A stretch of DNA of 64,000 bases from Candidatus Omnitrophota bacterium (GTDB lineage: Bacteria > Omnitrophota > Gorgyraeia > VGKH01): assembly GCA_022703055.1 (NCBI GenBank), contig JAKLEP010000001.1:346850-410849 (forward strand), read 5' to 3'. Below, piece by piece: positions 19,938 through 53,404 of this stretch. Position 1 is the first letter of the stretch. Each line of letters opens with the position of its first letter. The position numbers and the translations under genes were made by a program. Below the pieces are notes generated by a model that had not been told where the DNA came from, did not search any database, and worked only from the letters and a program-made list of their open reading frames with translations.

Positions 19938-19967
19938 GCCGAGCCACCTTTATTTCGGTAGCTCGGC
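19938..19967 (-). terminator. Candidate riboswitch expression-platform terminator hairpin
   Basis: Minus-strand GCCGAGCTACC-GAAATAAA-GGTGGCTCGGC forms an 11 bp stem including one G-U. It is followed by the A/U-rich ATTTATATTATATAATT, between the aptamer and the SD. Confidence 0.5.
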
Positions 19968-20000
19968 TGTCAAATTGGCTTTATGAGTTCTGCCCTTACG

Positions 20001-20103
20001 TTATCGGTGCGCCCGGCGATCGATTTCGGCCTTGCTCTTTTAAAGCCTTTAGACCCGTGGCTTTGCGTCTTCGTCTTTCGGCGAATTTGCCTTTTCGGAT
20101 AAG
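20001..20103 (-). promoter_or_regulatory. c-di-GMP-I (GEMM-I) riboswitch aptamer
   Basis: Minus-strand TTATCCG-AAAA-GGCAAA-TTCGCC-GAAA-GACGAA-GACGCAAAGCC-ACGGGTCTAAAGGC...GCCGGGCGCACCGATAA. It has the conserved GGCAAA, a GNRA-capped helix, GACGCAAAGCC, a CUAAA receptor-like bulge, and a closing P1 (TTATCCG/CCGATAA). Confidence 0.8.
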
Positions 20104-33061: not shown

Positions 33062-34970
33062 GGTCTTGGGCTGGATTTTTATGGCTCTGCCGATGAGTGT
33101 GTCTCTGTCTCTTGCCAAGGCTATCGGGACCGTCGGATACTACCTGGACTTTAAGCATAAAAGAGTAGTCTATGCCAATATCAAGACCGCATTCGGAAAC
33201 TCAAAAACTTTGCAGGAAATAAACGTCATAACCAAAAAGACTTTTCAGAATTTCTGCCAGCATATCGTCGAAGTGCTATGCCTGCCTAAGATTACACACG
33301 GTTATATCGAAAAATATGTTCGATTTGAAGATAAAAGTATAATCATGGATGCCATCAAGGAAAACAAGGGCCTGCTTGCCTGCAGTATGCATTTTGGCAG
33401 TTGGGAATTATCGTTTATTTTGTGCGACAGGCTTGGCCCGCCGTTTAAAATCATCGCCAGGGAACATGAAAAATATTCCAAGACCGACAAGTTGCTCAAC
33501 TCCTATCGTCAGATGCGTCCGGAAAGTGTTTTGTATCGCGGCGAAAGCCCCAAAGAAATGATCAAGGTATTGCAGAACAAAGAAATATTAGGCCTGGTTC
33601 TGGATCAGGGCGGCAAGAGCGGACAATTGACCGAATTTTTCGGGCAAAGCGCCTCCATGCCCACAGGCGCTTTACGATTAGCTTTAAAATTTGATGTCCC
33701 GATAGTAATGGTATTTATAATCAGGGAGCGCGGGCCATATCATAAGATTATTTTGAGGCGGTTAGAATTGATTAAGACTCAAGATGCCGAGAGGGATATT
33801 GAGCTAAATCTTAATAAGATTATGCGTATGGGCGAAGACATAATTCGGCAGCACCCCGAACAGTATATGTGGTTTTACAAAGTATGGAAATACTCCGATC
33901 AAAAGAAAATTGTTATTTTAAACGATGGAAAAATCGGCCAGCTAAGGCAAAGCCAGGCAGCGGCAGGCATTTTATCGGCAGAGCTAGCAAAAAACAATTT
34001 TAAAGCTTCCATAGAAATAATGGATGTCAGATTCAGGAATAATTTTTCCAAAGCCATGATATCTTTGTGTTCTGTCCCGGCGGCGAAACGCCATTGCATG
34101 GGTTGCCTGTGGTGCCTGGAGAAGTTTCTGGAAAAATCATCCTACGAGAATTTAGCCAGGATGAAAGCCGATTTTATCATCTCCAGCGGCTCAAGCCTGG
34201 CTAATGTGAATTATATTTTATCCAATGATAGCCTGGCAAAGAGTGTGTCGATTTTACGGCCGAATCTGCTGGGCACAAATAGATTTGACCTGGTGGTCAT
34301 GCCCAGGCACGATAATCCGCCGCAAAGAGACAATGTAGTTATAACAGACGGCTCATTAAATTTAATCAATAAAGATTATTTAAAAAAGCAGTCTGAAAAG
34401 ATTGCTTTGCGCTATCCTAATCTTAGCCAAGATAAAGCCAGGACAATAGGCGTCCTCTTGGGAGGAGATACAAAAAATTATAAGATATCTATTGAGGCGG
34501 TTAAAATCCTGATTTCAGAATTAAAAGATATTTCGCAAATATTAGACTTACAGATTTTATTGACCACATCAAGAAGGACTCCGAATAGCGTAGAGAACCT
34601 TATCATAGAGAGCCTGGGAAGTTTGCCAAAATGCAAGTTGCTGATAATCGCCAATGAAAACAATATTCCCGAGGCGGTGGGCGGAATATTGGGATTGTCC
34701 GATATAGTTATAGTAAGCGATGATAGCATTTCCATGGTTTCCGAGGCGGCTAGTTCCGGAAAATATGTAATTGTTGTTCAAACCGCCAAAGAATCCAGCT
34801 CAAGGAAGCACAGAAGATTTTTACAATCATTAAGCAGCCAAGAATATATTTTCCTGGTAAAACCGGATAAAATATCAGATACTATTAAACAAATCTTTAA
34901 CAATCAACCTAAAGTTAAAAAGCTGGCTGATAATGAAGCTTTGGCCAGTGCAATCGGAAAGATATTATGA
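33015..34970 (+). CDS. Fusion of a LpxL/HtrB-type lipid A late acyltransferase and an ELM1/GtrOC1-like putative glycosyltransferase domain
   Basis: 651 aa. The N-terminal ~295 aa has the acyltransferase HX4-type context (CSMHFGSWE). The C-terminal ~350 aa begins KIVILNDGKIGQLRQSQAAAGIL, typical of bacterial ELM1-like proteins. Confidence 0.6.
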   Translation: MKKHFLKDYCLFATAKVLGWIFMALPMSVSLSLAKAIGTVGYYLDFKHKRVVYANIKTAFGNSKTLQEINVITKKTFQNFCQHIVEVLCLPKITHGYIEKYVRFEDKSIIMDAIKENKGLLACSMHFGSWELSFILCDRLGPPFKIIAREHEKYSKTDKLLNSYRQMRPESVLYRGESPKEMIKVLQNKEILGLVLDQGGKSGQLTEFFGQSASMPTGALRLALKFDVPIVMVFIIRERGPYHKIILRRLELIKTQDAERDIELNLNKIMRMGEDIIRQHPEQYMWFYKVWKYSDQKKIVILNDGKIGQLRQSQAAAGILSAELAKNNFKASIEIMDVRFRNNFSKAMISLCSVPAAKRHCMGCLWCLEKFLEKSSYENLARMKADFIISSGSSLANVNYILSNDSLAKSVSILRPNLLGTNRFDLVVMPRHDNPPQRDNVVITDGSLNLINKDYLKKQSEKIALRYPNLSQDKARTIGVLLGGDTKNYKISIEAVKILISELKDISQILDLQILLTTSRRTPNSVENLIIESLGSLPKCKLLIIANENNIPEAVGGILGLSDIVIVSDDSISMVSEAASSGKYVIVVQTAKESSSRKHRRFLQSLSSQEYIFLVKPDKISDTIKQIFNNQPKVKKLADNEALASAIGKIL

Positions 34971-35257
34971 ACCCCGCCCTTCCTAAAGAATGGTATTATG
35001 TGTATCTACTTGCTAGCGGTAAGACATCTTGGATTTATATAGGCTGTACCAATGATTTAAAAAATAGATTGAAAGAGCATAGCGAAGGGAAGGTTTTTAC
35101 AACTAGAAAGATGCTACCTGTAGAATTAATATATTTCGAGGGATATAGGTCTAAGGACCATGCATATAAAAGAGAGAAAAATCTTAAAGCTTATGGCAGC
35201 GGTTTAGCAAAACTGAAATCCCGGCTCGGAATAGAAACGAAAGGAAGGGCGGGGTGA
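34967..35257 (+). CDS. Small GIY-YIG nuclease family protein (YhbQ/COG2827-like), copy 1
   Basis: 96 aa. Motif YYVYLL...WIYIGCTNDLKNRLKEH...R. ATG overlaps the upstream stop (ATGA). Its stop overlaps the downstream GTG start. Confidence 0.8.
   Translation: MNPALPKEWYYVYLLASGKTSWIYIGCTNDLKNRLKEHSEGKVFTTRKMLPVELIYFEGYRSKDHAYKREKNLKAYGSGLAKLKSRLGIETKGRAG
34972..35254 (+). mobile_element. Inverted-repeat-bounded GIY-YIG unit (CCCCGCCCTTCCT ... AGGAAGGGCGGGG)
   Basis: A 13 bp perfect inverted repeat brackets essentially the whole GIY-YIG ORF. The same CCCCGCCCT/AGGGCGGGG arms occur as ORF-less hairpins at 41489, 42067 and 51299. Confidence 0.5.
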
Positions 35258-37341
35258 ACATACTTCAGATTCTTCCAGAGCTAAATGTCGGCGGCGTTGA
35301 GACCGGAACGGTCGATTTCGCCAGGTACCTGGTGAAAAACGGCCACAAGGCAATTGTAGTCTCAAACGGCGGAGACCTGGTCGGAGATTTAGAGCAGGCA
35401 GGGGTTTTGCATTATAAATTGCCGGTGCACGAGAAATCCATATTTACCATTATCAAGATGATCAAAGAGCTGACTTTGATCATCAAGAAAGAAAATATCG
35501 ATATCGTCCACGCCCGCTCCCGCGTTCCCGGCTGGATCGGATTCTTCGCCGCAAGAAATACCGGGACGATTTTCCTCACCACCTGCCATGGCCATTATTC
35601 CAAACATTTCCTTTCAAAAGTCATGGGTTTCGGAAAACTGGTGATTGTGCCCTCAAACGTTATCGGCAGGCATATGATAGAAGATTTCGGCGTCCATCAT
35701 CAGCGCATAAGATTGATTCCCCGAAGCGTAGACCTGGAAAAATTTACTTTTTCGCCTTACGATACCAGGCCTAAGACTGGTTTTATCGTCGGGATGATCG
35801 GCAGGATTACTCCTTTAAAAGGCCATGCCCATTTCCTGAAGGCGATTTCCAAGCTCATCAGAACACTTCCCTACTTAAAAGTTTGGATTGTCGGCGACTC
35901 CCCGCAAAGTAAAAAGATTTACCGCGAAGAGGTCGAGACTCTTGCCCGACGCTTGGGAATTTCCCACTGCGTGCAATTCTTGGGCAACAGAAAAGATATC
36001 CCCCAGATTATTTCCAAATTGAATATCGTAGTCCTTTCCACGGTGACCGAAGAGGCATTCGGACGGGTGATCATCGAATCCCAGGCCTGCGGCACGCCGG
36101 TTATCGCAACAAGAGTGGGAGGAGTCGTTGACGTAGTCGAGGACGGCGAGACCGGAATCCTGGTCCCTCCCAAGGATCCCGACGCCATGGCATCGGCCAT
36201 CTTGAAGCTACTTAAGGATAAAACTCTGGCGGAAAAACTATCGCTTGCCGGACGAAAAAACGTGGAGGAGAAATTCACTATCGAGATGATGTCTACCGAA
36301 ACGCTAAAAGTCTACCAGGAGGCTGCAAGCACCAGAAATATCCTGGTTATTAAAATCGGCGCTTTAGGCGATGTGATTCTTTCTATTCCCTCCATAAGGG
36401 CGATAAGAAAGAAATACCCCGAAGCCAAGATTTATTGCCTGGTGGGTAAAGAGTCCCGCCCGATTTTACAGCGCTGCCCGTATCTAAACGGCATCATCAT
36501 TTATGATTATAAAGAAAAAGACAAAGGCATATTCGGCCCGATTAATATTATAAAGGAATTGAGAAAATATTATTTTGATATGGTCATTGATTTGCAGAAT
36601 AACCGCAAGAGTCATCTGATTAGTTTCTCGACCATGTCCTCAAGCCGCTACGGATACAACAATCGCAAGTTCAGTTTCTTGTTGAACCACAAGGTTGAGC
36701 CGACAAAGGAAGATACCCCGCCGATAGAGCACCAGTTTAGGACGCTTGGGCTTTTGGGCATCGCCAAAGAAGATACATCCCTGGAATTATGGCCTTCCGA
36801 AGAGGACGAGGAATACATACGGATTCTTTTAGAATCAGAATGGGTATCAGGCAAAGAAAAAATCATAGGGATAAATTTAGGCGCCAGCAAAAGATGGCTC
36901 ACCAAATGCTGGCCGCTAGAGAATTTTGCCCGCCTTTCGGATAGGTTGTCCAAGGAAAATATCAGGGTGATTATCACTGGCGCGCAAGATGATTTGGGCG
37001 CTGCCTCAAAAATCCAGAAGATGGCGACTTCAAAACTTTTGAATTTCGCCGGCAAGACTTCGATTATGCAGCTGGCGGCATTGATCAGAAAATGCAGTGT
37101 TTTTATTAGCGCCGATTCAGCTCCTCTGCACGTCGCTGCGGCAATGAATACTCCCATCGTGGCTTTGTTCGGCCCGACGTCGCCCCAGAGGCATATGCCT
37201 CCGGCGAAAAAAGCAGTTGTGGTAAAGGCAAATGTAATCTGCAGCCCCTGTTATAAGCCTAAATGCCAGAAAATGGATTGCATGAATCAGATTAGCGTGG
37301 ATGAAGTTTATATGGCGGTAAAAAAACTGATTAAAACATGA
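35254..37341 (+). CDS. Fusion glycosyltransferase, GT4 (N-terminal) + GT9 heptosyltransferase-like (C-terminal)
   Basis: 695 aa. GT4 motif EAFGRVIIESQACGTPVIATRVGG..EDGETG. GT9 motifs VIKIGALGDVILSIPSIRAIRKKYP and DSAPLHVAAAMNTP. Confidence 0.75.
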   Translation: MNILQILPELNVGGVETGTVDFARYLVKNGHKAIVVSNGGDLVGDLEQAGVLHYKLPVHEKSIFTIIKMIKELTLIIKKENIDIVHARSRVPGWIGFFAARNTGTIFLTTCHGHYSKHFLSKVMGFGKLVIVPSNVIGRHMIEDFGVHHQRIRLIPRSVDLEKFTFSPYDTRPKTGFIVGMIGRITPLKGHAHFLKAISKLIRTLPYLKVWIVGDSPQSKKIYREEVETLARRLGISHCVQFLGNRKDIPQIISKLNIVVLSTVTEEAFGRVIIESQACGTPVIATRVGGVVDVVEDGETGILVPPKDPDAMASAILKLLKDKTLAEKLSLAGRKNVEEKFTIEMMSTETLKVYQEAASTRNILVIKIGALGDVILSIPSIRAIRKKYPEAKIYCLVGKESRPILQRCPYLNGIIIYDYKEKDKGIFGPINIIKELRKYYFDMVIDLQNNRKSHLISFSTMSSSRYGYNNRKFSFLLNHKVEPTKEDTPPIEHQFRTLGLLGIAKEDTSLELWPSEEDEEYIRILLESEWVSGKEKIIGINLGASKRWLTKCWPLENFARLSDRLSKENIRVIITGAQDDLGAASKIQKMATSKLLNFAGKTSIMQLAALIRKCSVFISADSAPLHVAAAMNTPIVALFGPTSPQRHMPPAKKAVVVKANVICSPCYKPKCQKMDCMNQISVDEVYMAVKKLIKT

Positions 37342-38435
37342 ATGTACTCCTGTTAACAACCCATCTTAATCCCGGCGGGATTGCAAGCTACGTAGTGTCC
37401 CTGGCCAAGGGATTGAAAAATGATAACCACCGCGTCGTCGTGGCATCCAGCGGCGGCTCATTGGTGGATGTGTTAAGAAGCTACGATATTCCGCACGTGG
37501 AGATCAACATCACCACCAAGTCGGAGATCAGCCCCAAGATTTTTATCTCGTTAAAAAAACTTTTCAAGACGATTAATGATAATGACATTCAGATCATCCA
37601 CGCCCAGACAAGGGTCACGCAGGTGCTGGCTTTCTGGCTCGATAAGATAGGCGGCATTCCTTTTGTTTCCACCTGCCACGGATTTTTCAAGCCGCGTTTA
37701 AGCCGGATAAAATTCCCCTGCTGGGGAAGGAAGGTAATCGCCATAAGCGAAGCGGTGAAAAGCCATCTTATCCAGGATTTGAAGGTAAGGTTCGATACGA
37801 TCGAGCTAATCTATAACGGCCTGGAGGCAAGAAAGGCTTTTGAATATAGCGCAGACGAGTTGGCAGAAACCAGAAAATGGATTGGCCTAAGGTCCCGTGG
37901 CCCGGTCATCGGCAATATCGCCAGGCTATCCAGTGTTAAGGGCCAGAGTTATCTCATTGAGGCGATGAACGAGGTAGTAAAAATATTTCCCGATGCCCAG
38001 CTTTTAGTTGTCGGCGACGGAAAAATCAAGGACGATCTGGTCGCCAGGGTAAACGAGCTCGGCTTAAACAATAACATATTTTTTATTCCTTCGGTTAGAG
38101 AGACATCCTCGATATTATCGCTTATGGATATTTTTGTAATGTGTTCTGTTGCCGAGGGTTTGGGCCTTTCGATAATGGAAGCCCAGGCAGTGGGCTTGCC
38201 GGTTATCGCAACAGAAGTCGGCGGGATTCCGGAATTGGTCAAAGATGGCCAGACCGGGATTCTTGTCCCGCCACAGGATTCATTTAAGCTGGCCCATGCC
38301 ATCATCTCATTACTGGAAAATAGAGAGAAGGCCAGGCAATTAGGTGCCAACGCCCAGAAAAATATCCGGGAAAATTTCACTCTTGAGAAAATGATTAGCG
38401 AAACCGAGCGAGTCTACGAATCGGTCTTAAAATAA
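37338..38435 (+). CDS. Glycosyltransferase family 4
   Basis: 365 aa. Motif EGLGLSIMEAQAVGLPVIATEVGGIPELVKDGQTG. Confidence 0.8.
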   Translation: MNVLLLTTHLNPGGIASYVVSLAKGLKNDNHRVVVASSGGSLVDVLRSYDIPHVEINITTKSEISPKIFISLKKLFKTINDNDIQIIHAQTRVTQVLAFWLDKIGGIPFVSTCHGFFKPRLSRIKFPCWGRKVIAISEAVKSHLIQDLKVRFDTIELIYNGLEARKAFEYSADELAETRKWIGLRSRGPVIGNIARLSSVKGQSYLIEAMNEVVKIFPDAQLLVVGDGKIKDDLVARVNELGLNNNIFFIPSVRETSSILSLMDIFVMCSVAEGLGLSIMEAQAVGLPVIATEVGGIPELVKDGQTGILVPPQDSFKLAHAIISLLENREKARQLGANAQKNIRENFTLEKMISETERVYESVLK

Positions 38436-38436
38436 A

Positions 38437-39450
38437 ATGCAGAAAAGAATCTTGATCGCAAATGTCAATTGGCTGGGGGACGTTTTAATGTCTTCCGCCT
38501 CAATCCGGGCGATAAAAAAAGCCTATCCTGATAGCTATCTTGCCTGCATGGTGCCTAAGCGCTGCGTGGAAGTACTATCCGGCAATCCCAATCTGGATGA
38601 GATCATTGTTTTTGACGAGAAAGACACGCATAAATGGATATTTGCCCAGATAAAATTCATCCGCGAATTAAAAAACAAGAAATTTGATATCGTATTTTTG
38701 TTTCATCGCTCGATGACCCGCGCACTAATCGTAAAGCTGGCCGGAATCCCCGAGAGGGTCGGCTACTACACCCAAAAAAGATCCTGGCTCTTGACCAAGG
38801 CAATCGCCCAACCTGACCGCCAGATACATCGTCTGGACTATTATTTCAATATCGTCAGCTCTTATGGCATAAAATCCGATGGAAGATACTATGAATTCTT
38901 TGTCAGCGATGGCGACCGCGAATTTATCGACAAAAAGCTAAAAACACTGGGAGTCTCCCAGGAAGATTTTGTAGTGGTGATTAATCCCGGTGGGAACTGG
39001 GCTCCTAAGCGCTGGCCCAAAGAAAATTTCGCCGCGCTTTCCGATAGATTAATTAACGAGCTCGGCGCCAAAATAATAATCTCAGGCGCCGACAAAGACA
39101 TTGCTTTGGCCAATGAGATTTCTTCGCTCATGAAGCAAAAACCGATTATCTTAGCCGGGGCTACAAGCCTGAAACAGCTCGGGGCTTTGATGGAGGCATC
39201 CGATTTGGTCATCTCGGCAGATTCAGGGCCGATGCATATTGCCGCTGCCATGGGCACCGATTTAATCGCATTGTTCGGTCCGACAAAAGCGACTCTCACC
39301 GGGCCATTAGGAAAGGGAAAAATAGCAACAATCCAGCGAGAAGTGGGATGTGAAATTCCCTGCTATGTGAAAAACTGCCAGCACAATCGTTGCATGGAGG
39401 AAATTAGCGTAGACTATGTTTTCACGGAAGCCAAAAAATTCAGAGATTAA
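38437..39450 (+). CDS. Glycosyltransferase family 9 (LPS heptosyltransferase-like)
   Basis: 337 aa. Motifs NVNWLGDVLMSSASIRAIKKAYP and ADSGPMHIAAAMGT. Confidence 0.8.
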   Translation: MQKRILIANVNWLGDVLMSSASIRAIKKAYPDSYLACMVPKRCVEVLSGNPNLDEIIVFDEKDTHKWIFAQIKFIRELKNKKFDIVFLFHRSMTRALIVKLAGIPERVGYYTQKRSWLLTKAIAQPDRQIHRLDYYFNIVSSYGIKSDGRYYEFFVSDGDREFIDKKLKTLGVSQEDFVVVINPGGNWAPKRWPKENFAALSDRLINELGAKIIISGADKDIALANEISSLMKQKPIILAGATSLKQLGALMEASDLVISADSGPMHIAAAMGTDLIALFGPTKATLTGPLGKGKIATIQREVGCEIPCYVKNCQHNRCMEEISVDYVFTEAKKFRD

Positions 39451-41470
39451 GAATATTTTAGTCGTCAGCCTCACCAATATCGGCGACGTCATTCTGACTC
39501 TGCCCGTAATCGACACTTTAAAAGAGAATTTTCCCCAAGCCCGCATCCATGTCGTCGTCGGGCCGAAGGCCCTGGATTTACTCAACAATGATTTCCGCCT
39601 GAATCTGGTTGTCTACGACAAAAGAATCTCGCTAAAAGCCAAGCTGGGCTTCTTGATTTATCTAAAGAAGCAGAAGTTTGATCTCGTCGTTAACCTGCGT
39701 AACGCCGGTTTTGTCCGCCTCTTGAAAGCACCGTATAAAACGCCTGCGCTTTTAAAAATCCCCAAGACAATCGAGCACATGAAATACCGCCATCTCTACA
39801 AATTGAAGTCGACAATGCCATCGATCGAGAAATTCTGCTCGCTTGCCGAGATTTGCACCAATCAAAACGACAGAACCAAAGTGGACGGATTATTAGAAGA
39901 GAATAATATTCCCGCCTCGGGGTTTGTCGTGGTTTCACCCGGAGCTGCCAGCCACTGGAAAAGGTACCGCGCCAGCGGCTTCGCCGAGGTCGGCGATTAT
40001 TTAATGGAGAAATTCCGGTTGAAGATTATCATGGTTGGCGACAAAAACGATGCCGGTATCGTCGAGGATATTATCAACCTTATGAAGCATAAGCCGGTTA
40101 ATCTTGCCGGCCAGACCAATTTGCGCGAGCTTGCCTATCTATTAAAGAAGGCAAAATTAGTGATTTCCAATGACAGCGGGGTGATGCATTTGGCCAGCTA
40201 CCTCGATGTCCCCACCTTAGCGATTTTTGGCCCCACCGACCCCAAAAAATACGGCCCCTGGAATAATAAGAGCCTGGTTATAAGAGAGGAGCTGGATTGT
40301 TCGCCCTGCGAGCAGTCAAGCTGCCGCTATGAACACGAGTGCATGAATCTTTTGCATGAAGACAGGATAATAAAGCTCGCCGAGAAACTTCTTTCGGCAA
40401 ACCTCGCCCAGGAAAACCTGGCAATGTTCGCGCCTTTCTTGGGATACCGGAGGATTTTGATTGTGCGTACCGATAGAATCGGCGACGTGTTATTGTCCAC
40501 GCCGGTGATAAAAGCAGTCAAAGACTTTTATCCCAATTCATTTGTGGCGGTAATGGTCTCGCCATACGCCAAAGAAATCATCGAGGGAAACCCTTACGCC
40601 GATGAAGTCATCATTTATGATAAGGATAAAAAACACAAAAGCGTCTTGGCATCGATGGGATTTGCCCGCCGGCTAAAGCAGAGGAAATTCGATTTGGCGA
40701 TAATTTTACATCCCACCAACCGCGTGAATCTAGTCACCTATTTTGCGCGCATCCCCGAGCGGGTTGGCTACAACAAAAAAATGGGGCATCTTTTAACTAA
40801 AAAGATAGAAGACACCAAACATTTAGGCGAGAAGCACGAGATGGAATATTCCCTGGATGTTATCCGCGCACTCGGCATCGAGCCCAAGGATAAAACGCTT
40901 TATATGCCTATAAAATTAGAATCGGAAATATGGCTTGAAGATATTCTGGCCAAAAACCGCATACTGAATCAAGAGAGGCTGGTGGCCATTCATCCGGCGG
41001 CGAGCTGCCCGTCCAAGATCTGGCCGGCCGAATCCTTTGCCAAACTCGCCGATATCTTGATGGAAAAATACGGATATAAAATAATTATTGTCGCCGGCCC
41101 TAAAGATAAAAAATTAGCGCAAAAAGTCCAAGATAAAATGTCTTATCCGGTATTAAATCTGGCCGGCGACACAACAGTCAGCCGCCTGGCCAGTATCCTA
41201 AAAAGATGCAAACTCTTTATCTCAAATGATTCCGGCCCGGTACATATTGCAACTGCAGTGGGAACACCGGTAATTTCTATTTTTGGACGCAACCAGGCGG
41301 GATTAAGCCCGCTTCGCTGGGGGCCGCTCGGCCTCAAGGATAAATTCCTGCATAAGGATGTCGGATGTATTGAGTGTTTAGCGCATAATTGTAAAAAAGA
41401 ATTCACCTGTTTGAAGGCGATTCAGGTAGAAGACGTTTTAAAAACAGTGGATGAAGTTTTGAAAGAATGA
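39416..41470 (+). CDS. Tandem GT9-GT9 fusion (two heptosyltransferase-like modules)
   Basis: 684 aa. Module 1 has VVSLTNIGDVILTLPVID and NDSGVMHLASYLDVP. Module 2 has IVRTDRIGDVLLSTPVIKAV and NDSGPVHIATAVGTP. Confidence 0.75.
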   Translation: MFSRKPKNSEIKNILVVSLTNIGDVILTLPVIDTLKENFPQARIHVVVGPKALDLLNNDFRLNLVVYDKRISLKAKLGFLIYLKKQKFDLVVNLRNAGFVRLLKAPYKTPALLKIPKTIEHMKYRHLYKLKSTMPSIEKFCSLAEICTNQNDRTKVDGLLEENNIPASGFVVVSPGAASHWKRYRASGFAEVGDYLMEKFRLKIIMVGDKNDAGIVEDIINLMKHKPVNLAGQTNLRELAYLLKKAKLVISNDSGVMHLASYLDVPTLAIFGPTDPKKYGPWNNKSLVIREELDCSPCEQSSCRYEHECMNLLHEDRIIKLAEKLLSANLAQENLAMFAPFLGYRRILIVRTDRIGDVLLSTPVIKAVKDFYPNSFVAVMVSPYAKEIIEGNPYADEVIIYDKDKKHKSVLASMGFARRLKQRKFDLAIILHPTNRVNLVTYFARIPERVGYNKKMGHLLTKKIEDTKHLGEKHEMEYSLDVIRALGIEPKDKTLYMPIKLESEIWLEDILAKNRILNQERLVAIHPAASCPSKIWPAESFAKLADILMEKYGYKIIIVAGPKDKKLAQKVQDKMSYPVLNLAGDTTVSRLASILKRCKLFISNDSGPVHIATAVGTPVISIFGRNQAGLSPLRWGPLGLKDKFLHKDVGCIECLAHNCKKEFTCLKAIQVEDVLKTVDEVLKE

Positions 41471-41488
41471 TGTAATCTTTGCGGTTTA

Positions 41489-41620
41489 CCCCGCCCTTTC
41501 TTTCGACAAAAACTCTGTTCTAGAAAGGGCGGGGTTTAATTCGCAGACGCCCCGATAAATCGGGGCTACGGCTTACGTCGTTGACACTCCGTAAGTCGTC
41601 TGCTCATTAAAGGAGGCAAC
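41489..41620 (+). repeat. Composite structured intergenic element, copy A (empty GC-rich hairpin + three-stem module + SD)
   Basis: 13 bp stem CCCCGCCCTTTCT/AGAAAGGGCGGGG with a 20 nt loop, then TTTAATTC. P1 is GCAGACG/CGTCTGC, P2 is CCCCGA-TAAA-TCGGGG, P3 is GGCTTACG/CGTAAGTC. Ends TCATTAAAGGAGG-N5-ATG. Confidence 0.7.
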
Positions 41621-42064
41621 ATGAAAAAGATTCTATCAGTGATATTGGCGCTGAGTTTAGTATTGGTATCCTCGGTATTTGCCAATGAAGAGAAGTGCCA
41701 TGTAGCGCAAAAGACGGATGAGGCGCAAGTAGTAAATACGCAAGAATCCAGCCGTAATCTGCAAGCAGGGAATCCGTCTAACCCGGATGAGGTTAGCCAG
41801 GGATTGATTCGCAAATACGAAGGTGCAAATTCACAAAAGCCAACAAAACCCCGCCAAGCCATTAATAAGTCGGTAAATAGTGCAAAGGTTAAGCCTGGAC
41901 GGCAGATACCTGATTCCGGGGACCAGACCACCGACAGCGAAAAAAACGCGGTAAGGATTAATGATTTGACAAATAAAAAGCAGACGGCTGAAGGTTTGCT
42001 TTTAAACGAAATGAACAAAACTCACGAAACCCAAAGCTCGGTAGTAAATAACATAAAACCGTAG
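41621..42064 (+). CDS. Hypothetical secreted, low-complexity (Q/N/S/K-rich) protein
   Basis: 147 aa. Clear signal peptide MKKILSVILALSLVLVSSVFA. SD AAAGGAGG is supplied by element copy A. Confidence 0.55.
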   Translation: MKKILSVILALSLVLVSSVFANEEKCHVAQKTDEAQVVNTQESSRNLQAGNPSNPDEVSQGLIRKYEGANSQKPTKPRQAINKSVNSAKVKPGRQIPDSGDQTTDSEKNAVRINDLTNKKQTAEGLLLNEMNKTHETQSSVVNNIKP

Positions 42065-42066
42065 AA

Positions 42067-42170
42067 CCCAGCCCTTTCTTTCGACAAAAATTCTGTTCTA
42101 GAAAGGGCGGGGTTAATTCGCGCAAACAATTTACGTCAGCTACGCTTCCGTAAATTGTGCGCTCATTAAT
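42067..42170 (+). repeat. Composite structured intergenic element, copy B (degenerate, no SD)
   Basis: Hairpin CCCAGCCCTTTCT/AGAAAGGGCGGGG with a loop nearly identical to copy A. Then TTAATTC, a long hairpin GCGCA(AA)CAATTTACG/CGTAAATTGTGCGC, and TCATTAAT. Confidence 0.65.
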
Positions 42171-42220
42171 CGGGAACCGGTCCTGAGGAAGGAAAATTTC
42201 TAAAATATCGGGGGATAATA

Positions 42221-42835
42221 ATGTATTACACAAAAATAACAATATTTGAAAATAATAGAAGGATACAACAGCTGTATGCATTTATCGATCTTATTGGAAG
42301 GTACTTTCAAAATACAAGACATGATGGCTTTAGCTTTGAGCTTATTGAGAATGAAGAAGCGCTGACAATAAGAATGGAAATTGATCGAATACTTACTCGA
42401 ATATATAGAATTGTAATAGCCTCTGGTGTTAATCCGGTAATACAATATACGCCTCCTCCTGCAATTGGTGGATATATACGAGATATAGATGTAATTCATA
42501 ATATTTTTAATTTAAGCAGGTTTGAAATTAGACCAACAATTTTATTAGATTATATCTACAGGGCAATTGGCATATACGAGGATAATAGCAAAAGTGCGTT
42601 GATTAGAACTTTTAATCCGTTTTTCTGGTTAGGATTATTATTAGATTATATTGTTAGTTTACCTTTTAGATTTATGGGCATAATAGGATTTAATCAGAAC
42701 AAAGTTGAGTCTTCATTTATTGGTAAGATTGTTAAAGGTATATTATATTTGATTACAGTATTTGCTTCATTTTTGACGATTCTACACTTACTTGGTTTAC
42801 TAGACAATTTTAAGAATTATTTCAGTAGTAAATAA
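42221..42835 (+). CDS. Hypothetical protein with a cytoplasmic N-terminal domain and two C-terminal TM helices
   Basis: 204 aa. TM candidates FFWLGLLLDYIVSLPFRFMGIIGF and ILYLITVFASFLTILHLLGLL. Very AT-rich coding sequence. No recognised family. Confidence 0.6.
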   Translation: MYYTKITIFENNRRIQQLYAFIDLIGRYFQNTRHDGFSFELIENEEALTIRMEIDRILTRIYRIVIASGVNPVIQYTPPPAIGGYIRDIDVIHNIFNLSRFEIRPTILLDYIYRAIGIYEDNSKSALIRTFNPFFWLGLLLDYIVSLPFRFMGIIGFNQNKVESSFIGKIVKGILYLITVFASFLTILHLLGLLDNFKNYFSSK

Positions 42836-42941
42836 ATTTTTAGGTAAGGAAAATTCCAGAGTCTAATAATTTAATAAAGATTCCCGAATAAAATGGGGAA
42901 CGCCCTCGATAACTCATAAAGAAGGAAAGGAGCCAATCTTG

Positions 42942-44441
42942 ATGATACAAAAAGTCGATGATTATTTGGATGCATTCGACCTTGGAGCATCAACTGCTGA
43001 GAAAGATACGCTTTTGGAGATCGCAAAAATTGAGACTCAGGAATTTTATGATTTATATCTGCATGATAGGATAGATATAGTTCGAGGCACGAAAGGATCA
43101 GGAAAGACAGCTTTATATAGGTTGTTTTTTTTCTTGAGAAATTTATTAATCGATAAAAATAAACTATATTGCATATTCGGAATTGAGGCAACTGGTGATC
43201 CCCTTTTTAAGCTCTTCCAAGATGAATTTAAGTTATATTCAGAGGTTGAATTTGCAAACTTTTGGGGCATTTATTTTATAGTTTTAATATACAAGTTAAT
43301 TTTTAATGCCGATAAGTTACGAAATCAGATCGGCAATGAAGATATAAATAAAATCGATGAGACATTATCAAGAATGGGATTAAAAATTCATAAAGATGGC
43401 TTTATCTTTAAAGACATACAGTGTTCAATTTTAGATTTGATGAGAAAAACAAAAATGAAATTAGGTGTTGAAACTAAAATAGACCAGATATCAGGTTTGC
43501 CAATTTCATTTACGCCCGCAATTGAATTAGAGCCCGGTACGATAGATGAAGTTCATAATAAACCGATTTATCTTATTGATTTTAAGAATATGATCATATC
43601 GATTCTCGAAAAACATAACATAAAAATTTGGATAATGTTAGATCGGCTTGATGAAGTTTTCCCCCATCGTAGCGAAGTAGAAAAAAATGGTTTAAAAGGA
43701 CTGCTGCGAGCATCGTATAATTTTTCTTCTCATTCGTTCCTAAGAATAAAAATATTTTTGAGAGACGATATATTCGAATATTTAGCCGCAGATGGTTTTA
43801 CTGCTTTAACACATATAACCGATAGATGCTCAGCTTCAATGTCTTGGTCAAAAGATGATATTTTATATTTAATTGTCAAAAGAATAGCCGCTATTCCTTA
43901 TTTGCGCTATGAATATGGAATAGATTCTGATAAAATTGATAAAGATAAGTCATATCGTAGCGAGGTGTTTTATAAAATTTTCCCTCCTTGCGTCGGAAAA
44001 ATCGCCACCTTTGATTGGTTATTTGATTCTTGTTCTGATGGAAATGATATAGTCACTCCGAGAGATATAATAGATTTTTTCAGATGCGCAAAGGCTTTTC
44101 AATTTAAGAAATTTAAACAAACTGGGCAACAACAAGAATATCTTATTGAAGAAGATATTCTTAAAAAATCGCTTGAAGCACTTTCTAAGCAGAAAAAAAA
44201 CATGTTTCTGTTTGCAGAATTTCCTCATCTTAAACAACATATATTAAAATTTGAAGGAGGATGTAGTGAGCACAACGCTGATTCATTAGAAAAACTTTTG
44301 GGAAGCGATTGGATTAAAATAGTAGATGAGCTCAAGTCAATCGGGTTTTTGAAACATGTTCCAAAAAGTGGTGCGTATAAGATTCCTATAATCTGGAGGC
44401 AGGGGTTAAGTATTAAAAGAAGAAAAGCTTTTGAAAAATAA
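42942..44441 (+). CDS. Uncharacterised P-loop NTPase (~499 aa)
   Basis: Walker A GTKGSGKT (nt 43086-43109). Walker B-like IWIMLDRLDE (nt 43626-43655). SD AAGGAAAGGAG. ATG 42942 is preferred over TTG 42939. Family not recognised. Confidence 0.7.
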   Translation: MIQKVDDYLDAFDLGASTAEKDTLLEIAKIETQEFYDLYLHDRIDIVRGTKGSGKTALYRLFFFLRNLLIDKNKLYCIFGIEATGDPLFKLFQDEFKLYSEVEFANFWGIYFIVLIYKLIFNADKLRNQIGNEDINKIDETLSRMGLKIHKDGFIFKDIQCSILDLMRKTKMKLGVETKIDQISGLPISFTPAIELEPGTIDEVHNKPIYLIDFKNMIISILEKHNIKIWIMLDRLDEVFPHRSEVEKNGLKGLLRASYNFSSHSFLRIKIFLRDDIFEYLAADGFTALTHITDRCSASMSWSKDDILYLIVKRIAAIPYLRYEYGIDSDKIDKDKSYRSEVFYKIFPPCVGKIATFDWLFDSCSDGNDIVTPRDIIDFFRCAKAFQFKKFKQTGQQQEYLIEEDILKKSLEALSKQKKNMFLFAEFPHLKQHILKFEGGCSEHNADSLEKLLGSDWIKIVDELKSIGFLKHVPKSGAYKIPIIWRQGLSIKRRKAFEK

Positions 44442-50541: not shown

Positions 50542-51244
50542 CGGTTTAGCCAAGGCATACGACGGCAGGAAAGTCGTCGACGGTGTAAGCTTCTCTATCA
50601 AGAGGGGCGAGATCGTCGGGCTTCTTGGCCCGAACGGTGCCGGCAAGACCACCATATTTTATATGATCGTGGGGATTATCCCGGCAGAAGCAGGGAAAAT
50701 ATTTTTTGACCAGACAGATATTACCCGTTTAGCCATCCATGACCGCTGCCGCCTAGGAATGGGGTATCTGCCGCAGGATGCATCGATTTTCCGTAAATTA
50801 TCGGTCGAGGATAATATCCTGGCGATATTAGAGACTTTGAATATCAGCCGCACCGAAAGAAACAGAAGATTAAGGAAACTATTGAACGAATTAAACATTG
50901 CGCATTTAGCGAAAAACAAAGCCTATACTCTTTCGGGTGGTGAAAGAAGAAGATTGGAGATAACCCGTGCACTGGTGACCAATCCATCGTTTATACTTTT
51001 GGATGAGCCGTTTTCCGGGATTGATCCGATAATCGTCGCTGATGCGCAGGAGATCATAAAAGAACTAAAAGCCAAGGGATTGGGAATTTTACTTACCGAT
51101 CATAATGTCCGGGAGACGCTTTCTATAACCGATAGGGCATACTTAATCGCGGAGGGAAAGATTCTGATTTCTGGCTCAGCCGAGCAGCTTATCAACGAGC
51201 CCAAGGCGCGCCAGATTTATCTCGGAGAAAAGTTTAAAATGTAA
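50522..51244 (+). CDS. lptB: LPS export ABC transporter ATPase
   Basis: Walker A GPNGAGKTT, signature LSGGERRRLE, Walker B ILLDEP. ATG 50522 is preferred over TTG 50516. Confidence 0.9.
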   Translation: MRLLETNGLAKAYDGRKVVDGVSFSIKRGEIVGLLGPNGAGKTTIFYMIVGIIPAEAGKIFFDQTDITRLAIHDRCRLGMGYLPQDASIFRKLSVEDNILAILETLNISRTERNRRLRKLLNELNIAHLAKNKAYTLSGGERRRLEITRALVTNPSFILLDEPFSGIDPIIVADAQEIIKELKAKGLGILLTDHNVRETLSITDRAYLIAEGKILISGSAEQLINEPKARQIYLGEKFKM

Positions 51245-51248
51245 GTGA

Positions 51249-51470
51249 GGACACGGCTTATGGAGCGATAGCGAACATAAGTCGTGAGTCCGAACTTACC
51301 CCGCCCTCTAAGCGGAGCAAAGGGGGTGGAGACAATAAGTAAACCATACCCGGTTTTTCTATGCGTCATAGTGATACTTAAAGCATAGAGGGCGGGGTTC
51401 AATTCACAGACGGCTTCGCCTACGACTTACGTCGTTGGCACTCCGTAAGTCGTCTGTTCATTGAAGGAAA
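51249..51470 (+). repeat. Composite structured intergenic element, copy C (extra upstream hairpin, 77 nt loop)
   Basis: Upstream hairpin GGACACGGCTTATG...CATAAGTCGTGAGTCC. Arms CCCCGCCCTCT (51299-51309) and AGAGGGCGGGG (51387-51397), then TTCAATTC. P1 is ACAGACG/CGTCTGT, P3 is GACTTACG/CGTAAGTC. Ends TCATTGAAGGA. Confidence 0.65.
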
Positions 51471-51478
51471 ATGTTAAA

Positions 51479-52378
51479 ATGAACGCAACAGTCAAAAAGA
51501 TTGATGCCTGCAAGAGAGAAATGGTAATTAGCATACCCAAGGAAGTTGTCCAGAGTAAATTTGATGAAGTCTATAAGCTGATTCAGAAAAAAGCCCAGAT
51601 TAAAGGTTTTCGCGTCGGCACTGCGCCGATGCATCTGGTGCAATCGGAGCATAGCCAATTGGCCAGGGAAGAGGTCTTGAAGGATTTGATCCCCAATTCC
51701 TACAAAGAGGCATTGGAGAAGGAGAATTTGCTGCCGGTGGATCTGCCTGAAGTAACTGATGTATCATTCAAGGATGGCGGATTGACTTTTAAGGCTTCAT
51801 TTGAAGTCGTGCCGGAAGTCAAGATTAAGAAATACAAGGGATTAGAGGTAAAAAGGAAGAAAACCGCTGTCACCGACGAGGATATAAAGAAAAGCTTTGA
51901 ATTCCTGCGCAAATCCCAGGGCCTTGATGACAAAACCCAGATTGACGATACCTTTGCCAAGGGCTTAGGATATCCGAATTTGAAAGAATTAGAGGATACC
52001 ATAAAAAAGCAGATGGAATTTTCCAAGCAGCAGGAAGCCAGGAATGATATTGAAAACCAGATTGCCGAGCAATTGCTTAAGAATTCGGAATTGGATATCC
52101 CCCAGAGTTCGTTAACCAAGCAATTAGAGTATCTCCTGGAAGATACCAAGCAGCGCATGGCCCACCAAGGCGTTAAAAAAGAGGAAATCGATTCCAAAGA
52201 ACAGACGATCAAAGAGAAATTAAAGCCGCTGGCGGAAAATGACGTGAAATTATATTTCATCCTGGATAAAATCGCCGAGCTTGAGAATATAAAGGTTGAT
52301 AAGCCGGAGCACAAAACGGCCAAAGTCATGGAATTTTTATTAAAAGAAGCGAAATGGTCAAATGAGGACACAACTTAA
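51479..52378 (+). CDS. tig: Trigger factor lacking the PPIase (FKBP) domain
   Basis: ~299 aa from ATG 51479. Ribosome-binding signature GFRVGTAP in the N-domain. The N-domain runs directly into the C-terminal arm region. Located upstream of clpP. Confidence 0.75.
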   Translation: MNATVKKIDACKREMVISIPKEVVQSKFDEVYKLIQKKAQIKGFRVGTAPMHLVQSEHSQLAREEVLKDLIPNSYKEALEKENLLPVDLPEVTDVSFKDGGLTFKASFEVVPEVKIKKYKGLEVKRKKTAVTDEDIKKSFEFLRKSQGLDDKTQIDDTFAKGLGYPNLKELEDTIKKQMEFSKQQEARNDIENQIAEQLLKNSELDIPQSSLTKQLEYLLEDTKQRMAHQGVKKEEIDSKEQTIKEKLKPLAENDVKLYFILDKIAELENIKVDKPEHKTAKVMEFLLKEAKWSNEDTT

Positions 52379-52413
52379 GGAATGGAGTGACTTAAGTTGT
52401 CTGTCCGAATTTG

Positions 52414-52798
52414 ACCCTTGACATTTTATTTATGAAAGTTAATTCAATTTACTATTTTTATATATTAAAATGCAATGATGGTAGTAAATATTACGGTCAT
52501 ACCAATAATTTAGAAAAACGTTTTAAGGCTCATTCAGGTGGTCAGGTTTATTCTACTAGAGATAGACGTCCGCTTAAATTAGCTTACTGGGAAGAATTAG
52601 AAACTCGTTCAGAAGCTTTTAGAAGAGAAATGCAATTTAAGAATGGGAGAACTAGGAAAGAAACTATAGAAAAATTAATAGATTCTTTTCCTCAGGTAAA
52701 ATGTCAAGGGTTTAATTCGCAGGCGCCCCGATAAATCGGGGCTACGACTTACGTCGCTAAAGCTTCCGTAAGTCGACTGCTCATTAAAGGAGGTAGTA
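52414..52798 (+). mobile_element. Composite element copy D carrying GIY-YIG ORF 2 inside its hairpin
   Basis: 15 bp perfect inverted repeat ACCCTTGACATTTTA (52414-52428) / TAAAATGTCAAGGGT (52697-52711) brackets the ORF. Then TTAATTC, P1 GCAGGCG/CGACTGC, P2 CCCCGATAAATCGGGG (identical to copy A), P3 GACTTACG/CGTAAGTC, and TCATTAAAGGAGG before the clpP ATG. Confidence 0.55.
52432..52734 (+). CDS. Small GIY-YIG nuclease family protein (YhbQ/COG2827-like), copy 2
   Basis: ~100 aa. Motif YYFYILKCNDGSKYYGHTNNLEKRFKAH...R...E. Start uncertain (ATG 52432 or TTG 52411, no clear SD). The C-terminus reads through the right repeat arm into P2. Confidence 0.7.
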   Translation: MKVNSIYYFYILKCNDGSKYYGHTNNLEKRFKAHSGGQVYSTRDRRPLKLAYWEELETRSEAFRREMQFKNGRTRKETIEKLIDSFPQVKCQGFNSQAPR

Positions 52799-53404
52799 AT
52801 GGATGAGAGAATGCAGACCTTAGTGCCAATCGTTGTAGAGCAGACCGGTAGAGCCGAGAGGGCATACGATATTTATTCGCGCCTGCTTAAAGACAGGATC
52901 ATTTTTGTCGGGACTCCCGTCGATGATATGGTGGCAAATTTAATCATCGCCCAGATGCTTTTCTTGCAGATGGAGGATGTAAATAAAGACATAAATCTTT
53001 ATATCAATACTCCGGGTGGCCTGGTTACTGCGGGGCTTGCAATTTATGACACGATGCAGTTTGTCAAACCTGATGTCTGTACATACTGCATAGGACAGGC
53101 TAGCAGCATGGGCGCACTTCTTCTTACCGCAGGCACAAAAGGCAAGCGCTATGCGCTTCCCCATTCCAGGATTATGATCCACCAGCCGTGGGGCGGGGTT
53201 CAGGGTCAGGCAGCAGACATATCTATCCAGGCCAAAGAAATTTTGCGCTTAAGAGACAAGATTAATGAGATTCTCGCCCAGCATACGGGCAAGCCGCTTG
53301 ATAAAATCCAAAAAGACACAGACAGAGACTACTTTATGTCTCCGGAAGAAGCCAAAGAATACGGATTAATCGACGAGGTAATAGCCTCAACCAAGAAAAA
53401 ATAA
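52799..53404 (+). CDS. clpP: ATP-dependent Clp protease proteolytic subunit
   Basis: 201 aa. Catalytic contexts GQASSMGA and MIHQP. Follows tig. Confidence 0.95.

Follow-up and report, generated by a model that had tools for sequence, protein, structure and literature searches.

What is a small GIY-YIG nuclease gene doing inside a hairpin between tig, which encodes trigger factor, and clpP, and did gene and hairpin arrive there together? The locus lies in a window of 64,000 nucleotides (nt) of a Candidatus Omnitrophota genome (GCA_022703055.1, contig JAKLEP010000001.1, positions 346,850 to 410,849), in the gene order kdsD, kdsC, lptC, lptB, tig, GIY-YIG open reading frame (ORF), clpP. A sequence-only reading of this window had noticed a perfect 15-bp inverted repeat around an ORF of about 100 aa, and both stand: the repeat, ACCCTTGACATTTTA (52414-52428) and TAAAATGTCAAGGGT (52697-52711), is perfect over 15 nt, and the ORF matches the GIY-YIG family in Pfam. 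The tig-clpP element is a 430-nt self-folding cassette with a tiny GIY-YIG gene, placed exactly between tig and clpP, and it belongs to an apparently undescribed, phylum-wide family of elements that slot in at gene junctions. The evidence tilts, if only slightly, towards a selfish insertion cassette, in which a minimal Slx1-like GIY-YIG nuclease of about 95-100 aa is encoded inside a self-complementary four-way-junction unit of DNA or RNA.

The span first reported for this feature, 52414-52798, captured something real but cut it short, as the unit starts at 52358 with a 5′ hairpin and a closing helix. The repeat finder extends the arm pair to 23 nt with 91% complementarity (52406-52428 / 52697-52719), and the ORF, from its ATG at 52432 to its stop at 52732-52734, reads via the right arm into the stem module that follows, here called helix 3. 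This is the TTAATTC and P1-P3 module that had been read after the right arm: positions 52708-52756 are 96% identical to 41532-41580, P2 (CCCCGATAAATCGGGG) is identical, and at 41532-41616 this 3′ module is found again. The sequence TCCGTAAGTCG.CTGCTCATTAAAGGAGG is repeated at 41588, 51442 and 52765, and the CTCATTAAAGGAGG end is present at four places. The cassette termini AATGAG...CTCATT form terminal inverted repeats in addition to the inner arms of 15-23 nt, and by eye the left and right halves, ~70 nt each, are mutually inverted copies, hairpin included. The final seven codons of tig (SNEDTT and the stop) are cassette sequence, and no AGGAGG-like Shine-Dalgarno sequence precedes the nuclease ATG, in agreement with what had been read there.

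The origin of the cassette is told by junctions with and without it. Scanning metagenomes with a Tig alignment recovered three cassette-free tig-clpP loci, L045, L046 and the outgroup L047, to be set beside two filled ones, the window and L015, which also holds a GIY-YIG cassette. By Tig identity the window pairs with L045 (85%) and L015 with L046 (86%), with 45-48% between the pairs and ~50% from L047 to all four. In the three empty loci clpP starts 1-4 nt past the tig stop, without any hairpin, and its Shine-Dalgarno sequence sits within the last tig codons (e.g. AAATGGGAGGAGGCAAAATAAATG). Both filled cassettes start directly after the Trp codon TGG and end with CTCATTAA immediately before AGGAGG, so that Tig finishes in WSNEDTT or WSNEA at filled sites and in WEEAK or WQEEGGA at empty ones; apart from the cassette, the junction sequences of L015 and L046 hardly differ. 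Around each filled site the flanks resemble those of its sister genome and not those of the other filled site. Because the empty state (Tig C-terminus WEEAK) is common to distant lineages, it is ancestral, and the parsimonious reading of these sequences is that one and the same nucleotide position, directly 5′ of the clpP Shine-Dalgarno sequence, was invaded independently in both filled lineages; a single gain followed by three exact restorations would be less parsimonious. Therefore, the insertion between tig and clpP that had been proposed holds, and the suggested comparison of tig-clpP spacers in relatives found both filled and empty states, so the gene is not universally conserved there. 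Of the two routes that the sequence-only reading had offered for the nuclease, homing into hairpins or being carried by them, the second survives, since each tig-clpP junction holds the folded cassette in full or not at all, whereas homing into an existing hairpin fails at tig-clpP because the empty junctions are hairpin-free; the cassette came in complete, as a single unit.

The same architecture recurs across the phylum. A scan of 185,579 species genomes gave 32 loci, mostly from Omnitrophota, and exact-protein look-ups added more; the GIY-YIG homologues carry the names Candidatus Omnitrophota or Omnitrophica. Arms and architecture were counted in 30 loci, drawn from about 25 Omnitrophota genomes. 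Of these loci 29 have both arms, 26 of them exactly as CCCTTGACATTTT / AAAATGTCAAGGG, the exceptions being a compensatory double change in L027 and a G.T wobble at one position in L026 and L042; in L042 the arms are retained although protein identity is only 34%. Since the same arms bracket a homologous ORF in 29 of the 30 loci from other genomes, a chance origin of the inverted repeat is excluded, and the earlier proposal that position and not arm sequence is conserved is reversed, the arms being the most conserved part across genomes. The right-arm DNA is translated as KCQGFNS in most homologues and, in another frame, as KMSRV in others; therefore, arm conservation acts at the nucleotide level. 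The common layout is AATGA, helix 1, GAATT, left arm, ATG...ORF, right arm, AATTC, helix 3, CTCATT, (A/G)A, AGGAGG, and in most loci CTCATT-(A/G)A-AGGAGG is followed by a start codon 3-9 nt on.

The targets of the family are many. About 20 different genes lie downstream, among them those for L32 (rpmF), L19 (rplS), L7/L12 (rplL), L31, S1 (rpsA), infC and clpP, and further those for pyruvate formate-lyase (PFL), RtcB, malate/lactate dehydrogenase (mdh), HisB and a ThiI-like protein; no cassette opposite in orientation to its flanking genes occurs among the loci examined. In 25 of the 29 loci with both arms the upstream ORF ends at the cassette 5′ end or 1-61 nt into it, so that ORF usually takes its stop codon from the cassette. 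The closest homologue of the tig-clpP protein, P0003 (80% identity), is encoded at another junction, with a parA-like gene downstream; its contig shares a metagenome with the empty-site relative L045, and in another sample the same parA-like position holds a homologue with 71% identity. The closest cassettes of the tig-clpP ORF type (L055 2269-3668, L058 3347-4762) stand upstream of a parA/MipZ-like ATPase gene, and the gene after this one has a weak MamF/MmsF Pfam match; a reciprocal empty site was sought, and the window has nothing that corresponds to the parA-type locus of L055. The genome Zod_Metabat.783 holds three copies, two of which (L017, L018) are 85% identical with 5′ hairpins alike by eye; within-genome paralogues are generally 62-85% identical, and several near-identical copies per genome are not the case. 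Decayed copies occur as well, truncated in L036, L039 and L044 and frameshifted in L035. Both GIY-YIG proteins of the window were found with identical sequence on a 500-kb contig of JGI metagenome 3300010429 and in the metagenome-assembled genome (MAG) GCA_028686955.1; other assemblies with the same proteins are of the same strain (99.8-100% identity) and hence uninformative for strain-level polymorphism.

Conservation extends from the arms to the fold. The fold obtained for a 446-nt stretch is a perfect four-way junction with zero unpaired junction bases (z = -6.1 versus shuffles), composed of the closing helix, helix 1, helix 2, formed by the arms around the ORF, and helix 3, and the ORF takes the position of the apical loop of the middle helix, helix 2. 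With the ORF deleted and a short linker in its place, most elements (window and 16 other loci) share the four-way junction as their minimum-energy fold. Covariation was assessed in 18 elements with the ORF swapped for the linker GCGAAAGC, because of which the two innermost helix 2 pairs are artificial in this alignment; RNAalifold on a MAFFT alignment failed to align helix 3 and was replaced by an anchor-based inward pair count. In these elements 97.2% of cells pair, versus 25-43% with the partners slid by 1-3 columns, and changes on both sides affect 14 pairs and 79 cells, a level reached by 0/500 shuffles. Nearly all covariation falls in helix 1, which has both-sided changes in 12 of its own 14 pairs, and the sequence of helix 2 is almost invariant; the basal 4 bp of helix 3 form in 18/18 elements, and positions 2-4 covary, with more than one type of pair. 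Constraint acts on the sequence of the arms and on the structure of helix 1 and of the helix 3 base. As a separate observation, in L013, L015 and L034 helix 3 is itself a CCTTGACA...TGTCAAGG palindrome, so the TTGACA core occurs in a second helix, which hints at a putative sequence-specific binding site.

The nuclease itself consists of the catalytic domain only. It matches Pfam GIY-YIG PF01541 at 54.8 bits versus a 22.6-bit cutoff (E = 1.2e-14), and in 23 sequences the GIY-YIG motif residues Y10, Y20, G22, R30, H34 and E66 never vary; among solved structures 1zg2 (BH0048, 2.9e-14) and 1ywl (EF2693, 5.5e-13) are closest, with a weak match to SLX1 7cq2 at 0.027. No accessory or DNA-binding module was found with Pfam, no NCBIfam match was found for the tig-clpP ORF, and TIGR01453 matches only copy 1, a second GIY-YIG ORF of the window, at 17.8 bits, far under the 56-bit cutoff. 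No transposase of a known class (DDE, HUH including Y1, Ser, Tyr) is encoded, the sole cassette ORF being GIY-YIG. The ratio of nonsynonymous to synonymous substitution rates (dN/dS) is 0.09-0.23 in six homologue comparisons; the nuclease is under purifying selection. Bacterial minimal Slx1-like proteins have been considered vertically inherited, probable repair enzymes, and the known selfish GIY-YIG genes have been derived from the UvrC lineage, not the Slx1 lineage (PMC1564403). Nucleases of the Slx1/ANKLE1 type cleave branched DNA, cruciforms and four-way junctions (PMC10287932), which by analogy suggests that the cassette's own structure, or extruded palindromes, may be the substrate here. 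The features of the cassette, its neighbors and its relatives are listed below.

Table 1. Features of the tig-clpP cassette, its neighborhood and related sites; coordinates are those of the window unless a locus is named.
Feature	Coordinates	Strand	Sequence, context or basis
Whole inserted cassette	52358..52787	+	TCAAATGAGG to CTCATTAA; filled versus empty junctions (window versus L045; L015 versus L046) and fold
tig (trigger factor)	51479..52378	+	Pfam Trigger_N and Trigger_C on called gene
Closing helix, 5′ strand AAUGA	52361..52365	+	pairs with 52781-52785 in minimum-energy folds; 97.6% of cells pair, 18 elements
Helix 1, 5′ hairpin	52366..52406	+	GGACACAACTTAAGG...CTTAAGTTGTCTGTCC; 12/14 pairs changed on both sides, 18 elements
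Helix 2, left arm	52407..52428	+	GAATTTG ACCCTTGACATTTTA; core from the earlier reading 52414-52428
GIY-YIG nuclease ORF, 100 aa and stop, Slx1-like UPF0213 type	52432..52734	+	Pfam PF01541, PDB matches, dN/dS
Helix 2, right arm	52697..52718	+	TAAAATGTCAAGGGT TTAATTC; overlaps final ORF codons
Helix 3 (P1-P3)	52719..52780	+	GCAG...CTGC around CCCCGATAAATCGGGG and CGACTTACG...CGTAAGTCG; repeat finding and fold
Closing helix, 3′ strand UCAUU	52781..52785	+	minimum-energy folds
clpP Shine-Dalgarno AGGAGG	52788..52793	+	at insertion boundary; common to filled and empty sites
clpP	52799..53404	+	Pfam CLP_protease on called gene
Empty junctions			L045: AAATGGCAGGAAGAAGGAGGGGCTTAATATG; L046: GAATGGGAGGAGGCTAAGTAAGATG
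Copy 1, 96-aa GIY-YIG ORF	34967..35257	+	at ATGA stop/start overlap of two lipopolysaccharide (LPS) genes
Copy-1-type sites			window: LPS genes; L060: argD/argF; L066: cdsA/dxr; L021: ORF-less, topA start
ORF-less cassette	41488..41616	+	CCCCGCCCT hairpin, helix 3, CTCATTAAAGGAGG
Degenerate ORF-less cassette	42066..42175	+	
ORF-less cassette between lptB and tig	51245..51464	+	helix 1, CCCCGCCCTCT hairpin, helix 3, TTCATT
Distant UPF0213/GIY-YIG genes by tRNA or tRNA-like copies	L037 ~2900-3330; L040 ~2900-3330; L043 ~250-700; L041 ~2900-3000		L041: single copy adjoining

Copy 1 represents a sister family with its own mode of insertion. The identity of about 40% that had been judged by eye between the two ORFs is what tblastn returned (match at 34994-35188, 40% over 65 aa, E = 5e-11). 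The arms of copy 1, ACCCCGCCCTTCC (34971-34983) and GGAAGGGCGGGGT (35243-35255), lie inside the ORF ends and are always this pair in the copy-1 family, and in more than 150 homologues the translated arms appear as the shared termini MNPALP... and ...KGRAG. Four independent copy-1-type sites read ATGA/ACCCCGCCC...GGGCGGGGTGA/A, the junction form ATGA/ACCCC...GGGGTGA/A being common to copy 1, L060, L066 and L021. When the element is removed in silico, ATGA-A... with an ordinary in-frame start of the downstream gene remains at all four sites; therefore, the element appropriates the host ATG for its nuclease, together with the Shine-Dalgarno sequence or translational coupling of that start, and its right end GGGGTGA leaves the host gene to begin at a new GTG, in overlap with the nuclease stop (GTGA). 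At four independent sites the elements are flanked by a direct repeat, TGA(A), that from the sequences looks like a target-site duplication of this family. The outer three-stem module that the sequence-only reading had described after the right arm is absent at copy 1 and is thus not universal to the family.

The two families meet in the ORF-less cassettes, three of which, in the window, join arms of the copy-1 family to the outer module of the tig-clpP family. Both arm types, by reading, start with ACCC and finish with GGGT, and the two GIY-YIG families are related and appear from these sequences to have exchanged parts. ORF-less CCCCGCCCT hairpins number three in the 64-kb window, which contains no ORF-less hairpin with TTGACA arms, and no short-loop exact TTGACA palindromes occur in the fetched loci; outside the window genome ORF-less cassettes are rare (about 280 kb of Omnitrophota flanks). 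The lptB-tig spacer, which holds one of them in the window (51245-51478, with CCCCGCCCTCT), is ~30 nt and empty in L015, L046 and L047, and in L045 (2339-2500) it holds an ORF-less cassette with a third arm pair, ACCTCCACACCAATT / AATTGGTGTGGGGGT; apparently, a cassette already in place can exchange its middle helix. Two further observations concern these hairpins. In L021 (~1500-1565) the ATGA at the start of topA contains an ORF-less CCCCGCCCTTCCT hairpin, with a TTGACA-type GIY-YIG cassette ~10 nt upstream of it, and three independent assemblies of one strain (L007, L008, L009) end 8-9 nt past the copy-1 right arm (window ~35265), breaks that are probably due to assembly-graph branching at the repeated hairpin.

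Based on these findings, the best-supported reading is that the nuclease is retained since it is required for the propagation or maintenance of the cassette. In the mechanism that we propose, the nuclease would cut DNA to start the copying of the cassette into new junctions, through recognition either of the gene-junction sequence or of a hairpin, cruciform or four-way structure, as with Slx1 and ANKLE1, and host repair or replication would finish the insertion. The protein would be weakly translated from the host operon transcript via re-initiation after the upstream stop codon, while the fold and the retained Shine-Dalgarno sequence would keep clpP expressed; with clpP presumably still expressed, the insertion would be nearly harmless. 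The ORF-less copies would be deletion derivatives. There is a substantial chance that the cassette is a new class of element. The fuller proposal, of a new mobile-element class in which an Slx1-like nuclease of ~95 aa sits within its own hairpin or four-way substrate, targets translation punctuation (5′ of the Shine-Dalgarno sequence, or the start-codon ATGA) and uses host signals, is a possibility that falls somewhat short of an even chance. The full-text literature searched, with subscription journals outside its coverage, gave no published account of a GIY-YIG-encoding palindromic, MITE-like (miniature inverted-repeat transposable element) or insertion sequence (IS)-like bacterial element, or of YhbQ/UPF0213 mobility.

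Several points weigh against a selfish cassette. Nuclease activity, cleavage site and mobility are putative, and GIY-YIG enzymes cut DNA and have, to our knowledge, no joining activity, so that integration needs an unexplained step. No consistent target-site duplication was seen at tig-clpP-type sites in the filled/empty comparison, and no identical proteins at different loci, as very recent transposition would give, were found, P0018 and P0022 each being single-locus across samples. Movement is rare, because the paralogues are old (dS about 0.45), and inheritance is mostly vertical, because related genomes share positions (L013/L014/L036; L055/L058). The sense strand is more stable than the antisense strand in 14/18 elements (mean difference 3.3 kcal/mol, p = 0.0013); this predicted bias is modest evidence for constraint on the transcript or the top DNA strand and, together with the G.U wobbles in the arms, points to RNA-level constraint, which would be superfluous for a pure DNA-mobility model. 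Moreover, long-term purifying selection on a low-copy gene equally fits a domesticated, host-useful role.

That role is the core of the main rival, a domesticated system like repetitive extragenic palindromic (REP) elements and their REP-associated tyrosine transposases (RAYT), in which the folded cassette would be a host-useful RNA (a processing site, 5′ stabilizer or translation insulator) and the GIY-YIG protein a maintenance enzyme, retained by vertical inheritance, that would now and then seed or repair cassettes. It is sustained by the low copy number, long persistence and sense-strand bias, and it would sit well with a low-copy gene under purifying selection, with cassettes that are always co-oriented, end exactly at the Shine-Dalgarno sequence and often stand upstream of highly expressed translation genes, with a more stable sense strand that tolerates G.U wobbles, and with the ORF-less cassette that persists at lptB-tig in the window and L045. 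However, close relatives manage at tig-clpP cassette-free, with a 1-nt spacer, decayed copies are tolerated, ORF-less cassettes are rare beyond the window genome, and no Rfam family matches, so we judge this explanation unlikely. A classical free-standing homing endonuclease gene, which would recognize a specific empty site and copy itself only between alleles via double-strand-break repair, the hairpins being co-converted flanks, seems to us quite unlikely. The GIY-YIG fold is a classical homing-endonuclease fold, the same tig-clpP nucleotide was hit twice in distant lineages, and presence is sporadic, with some positions common to related genomes; but the protein is a catalytic domain without a DNA-binding module and is Slx1-like, not of the UvrC/homing-endonuclease lineage to which selfish GIY-YIG genes have been traced (PMC1564403), ~20 unrelated junctions are occupied, the flanks of filled sites resemble their own sister genomes, and the conserved cassette ends far exceed a co-conversion tract. 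Finally, an ordinary YhbQ-like host repair gene beside ordinary terminator or attenuator hairpins, with no element at all, is highly improbable, for although bacterial Slx1-like proteins are predicted to be vertically inherited repair enzymes (PMC1564403) and the hairpin stems are followed by TTTAATT, presence and absence differ between sister genomes, the filled/empty junction pairs already contradicting such a reading, the arms are conserved past synonymous-site saturation in 29/30 loci, the scan found no terminator-like site, and genomic positions vary.

Other identities were tried for the cassette and rejected. A hammerhead-like core (AAUGAGG..CCGAAU versus CUGAUGA..GAAA) lacks U4 and G5, its core being CAAAUGA, and no Rfam ribozyme was found at E <= 10; Rfam families including ribozymes and group I introns gave no gathering-score match at the cassette, with only chance-level E >= 2.3 at 51200-52830. 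ARAGORN was negative for a tRNA-like cloverleaf, the TTGACA of the arm as a -35 box has no acceptable -10 box at the right spacing on either strand, no promoter was called at the cassette, and scans of 51150-52900 and of the cassette hairpin within 41300-42300 called no intrinsic terminator-like site. A phage origin found no IMG/VR relatives and no PHROG match, and for a defense system PADLOC had no match for the tig-clpP ORF and only weak PDC-S14 matches for copy 1.

Known systems resemble the cassette in part. Like it, REP/REPIN sequences with their RAYT (PMC3116915, PMC3337134) comprise one small nuclease-type gene bracketed by inverted palindromic repeats, and both combine a low-copy, mostly vertical gene under purifying selection with ORF-less intergenic hairpin copies in the same genome. 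However, the cassette protein is a Slx1-like GIY-YIG nuclease and not a HUH/Y1 transposase, the cassette is a four-helix junction instead of a simple hairpin pair and sits exactly at stop/Shine-Dalgarno or ATGA junctions, and ORF-less copies are few in the sequences examined. The T4 Seg proteins and I-TevI (PMC2988022) share with it the GIY-YIG fold, a gene between conserved genes, presence/absence polymorphism and repeated invasion of the same site, whereas the cassette protein has no DNA-binding domain and belongs to the Slx1, not the UvrC/homing-endonuclease, lineage, its gene lies within conserved inverted repeats and a folded unit at many unrelated target junctions, and the nuclease has no relative in the viral contigs searched. 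The closest protein relatives are Slx1 and ANKLE1 (PMC10287932; PMC1564403), UPF0213 being the bacterial Slx1 family, and these cut structures that the cassette can form; unlike the cassette nuclease, they are chromosome-maintenance factors, not known to be encoded within their own potential substrate or linked to insertions. The Correia and ERIC/RU MITEs (PMC2229807, PMC3184786) are likewise small palindromic insertions at gene boundaries that are co-transcribed, fold in mRNA and can carry translation signals, but the autonomous partners of those MITEs encode DDE-type transposases. A last parallel is offered by the nesting of a gene in a hairpin loop. IS1397 inserts into REP loops, and in the cassette the arms travel with the ORF rather than being the target.

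Some observations stand apart from the cassette. Tandem tRNA or tRNA-like copies flank more distant UPF0213/GIY-YIG genes in MAGs of Bacteroidota and other groups, outside the Omnitrophota cassette, a setting that may be another mobile context for the UPF0213 family. Within the window, a c-di-GMP-I-GGC riboswitch aptamer matches at 19953-20100 on the minus strand (63.2 bits versus a 59-bit gathering score), and two tRNA matches lie within 1-184. Directly after the degenerate cassette at 42066-42175, two ORFs of 204 aa and 500 aa, AT-rich by eye, occupy 42221-44441, which could be a small foreign island. The direct repeat D1 (36494-40656, three copies, 67-73% identity, ~2 kb spacing) falls in heptosyltransferase-like (Glyco_transf_9) genes and most likely represents paralogous domains, not mobile DNA.

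If the selfish-cassette reading is true, the smallest type of GIY-YIG nuclease, so far deemed a housekeeping repair protein, can power a selfish element, and, should the cassette be a new class, it would be the first selfish lineage in the Slx1 branch of GIY-YIG nucleases. It would further imply that mobile DNA can fit exactly into the stop, Shine-Dalgarno and start punctuation of compact operons and leave them intact. As one 430-nt unit would then encode both a structure- or junction-specific nuclease and its likely substrate, the function of bacterial Slx1/YhbQ would become directly testable. For the annotation of Omnitrophota and other uncultured genomes, the cassettes matter in that they alter the apparent C-termini and start codons of their neighbors.

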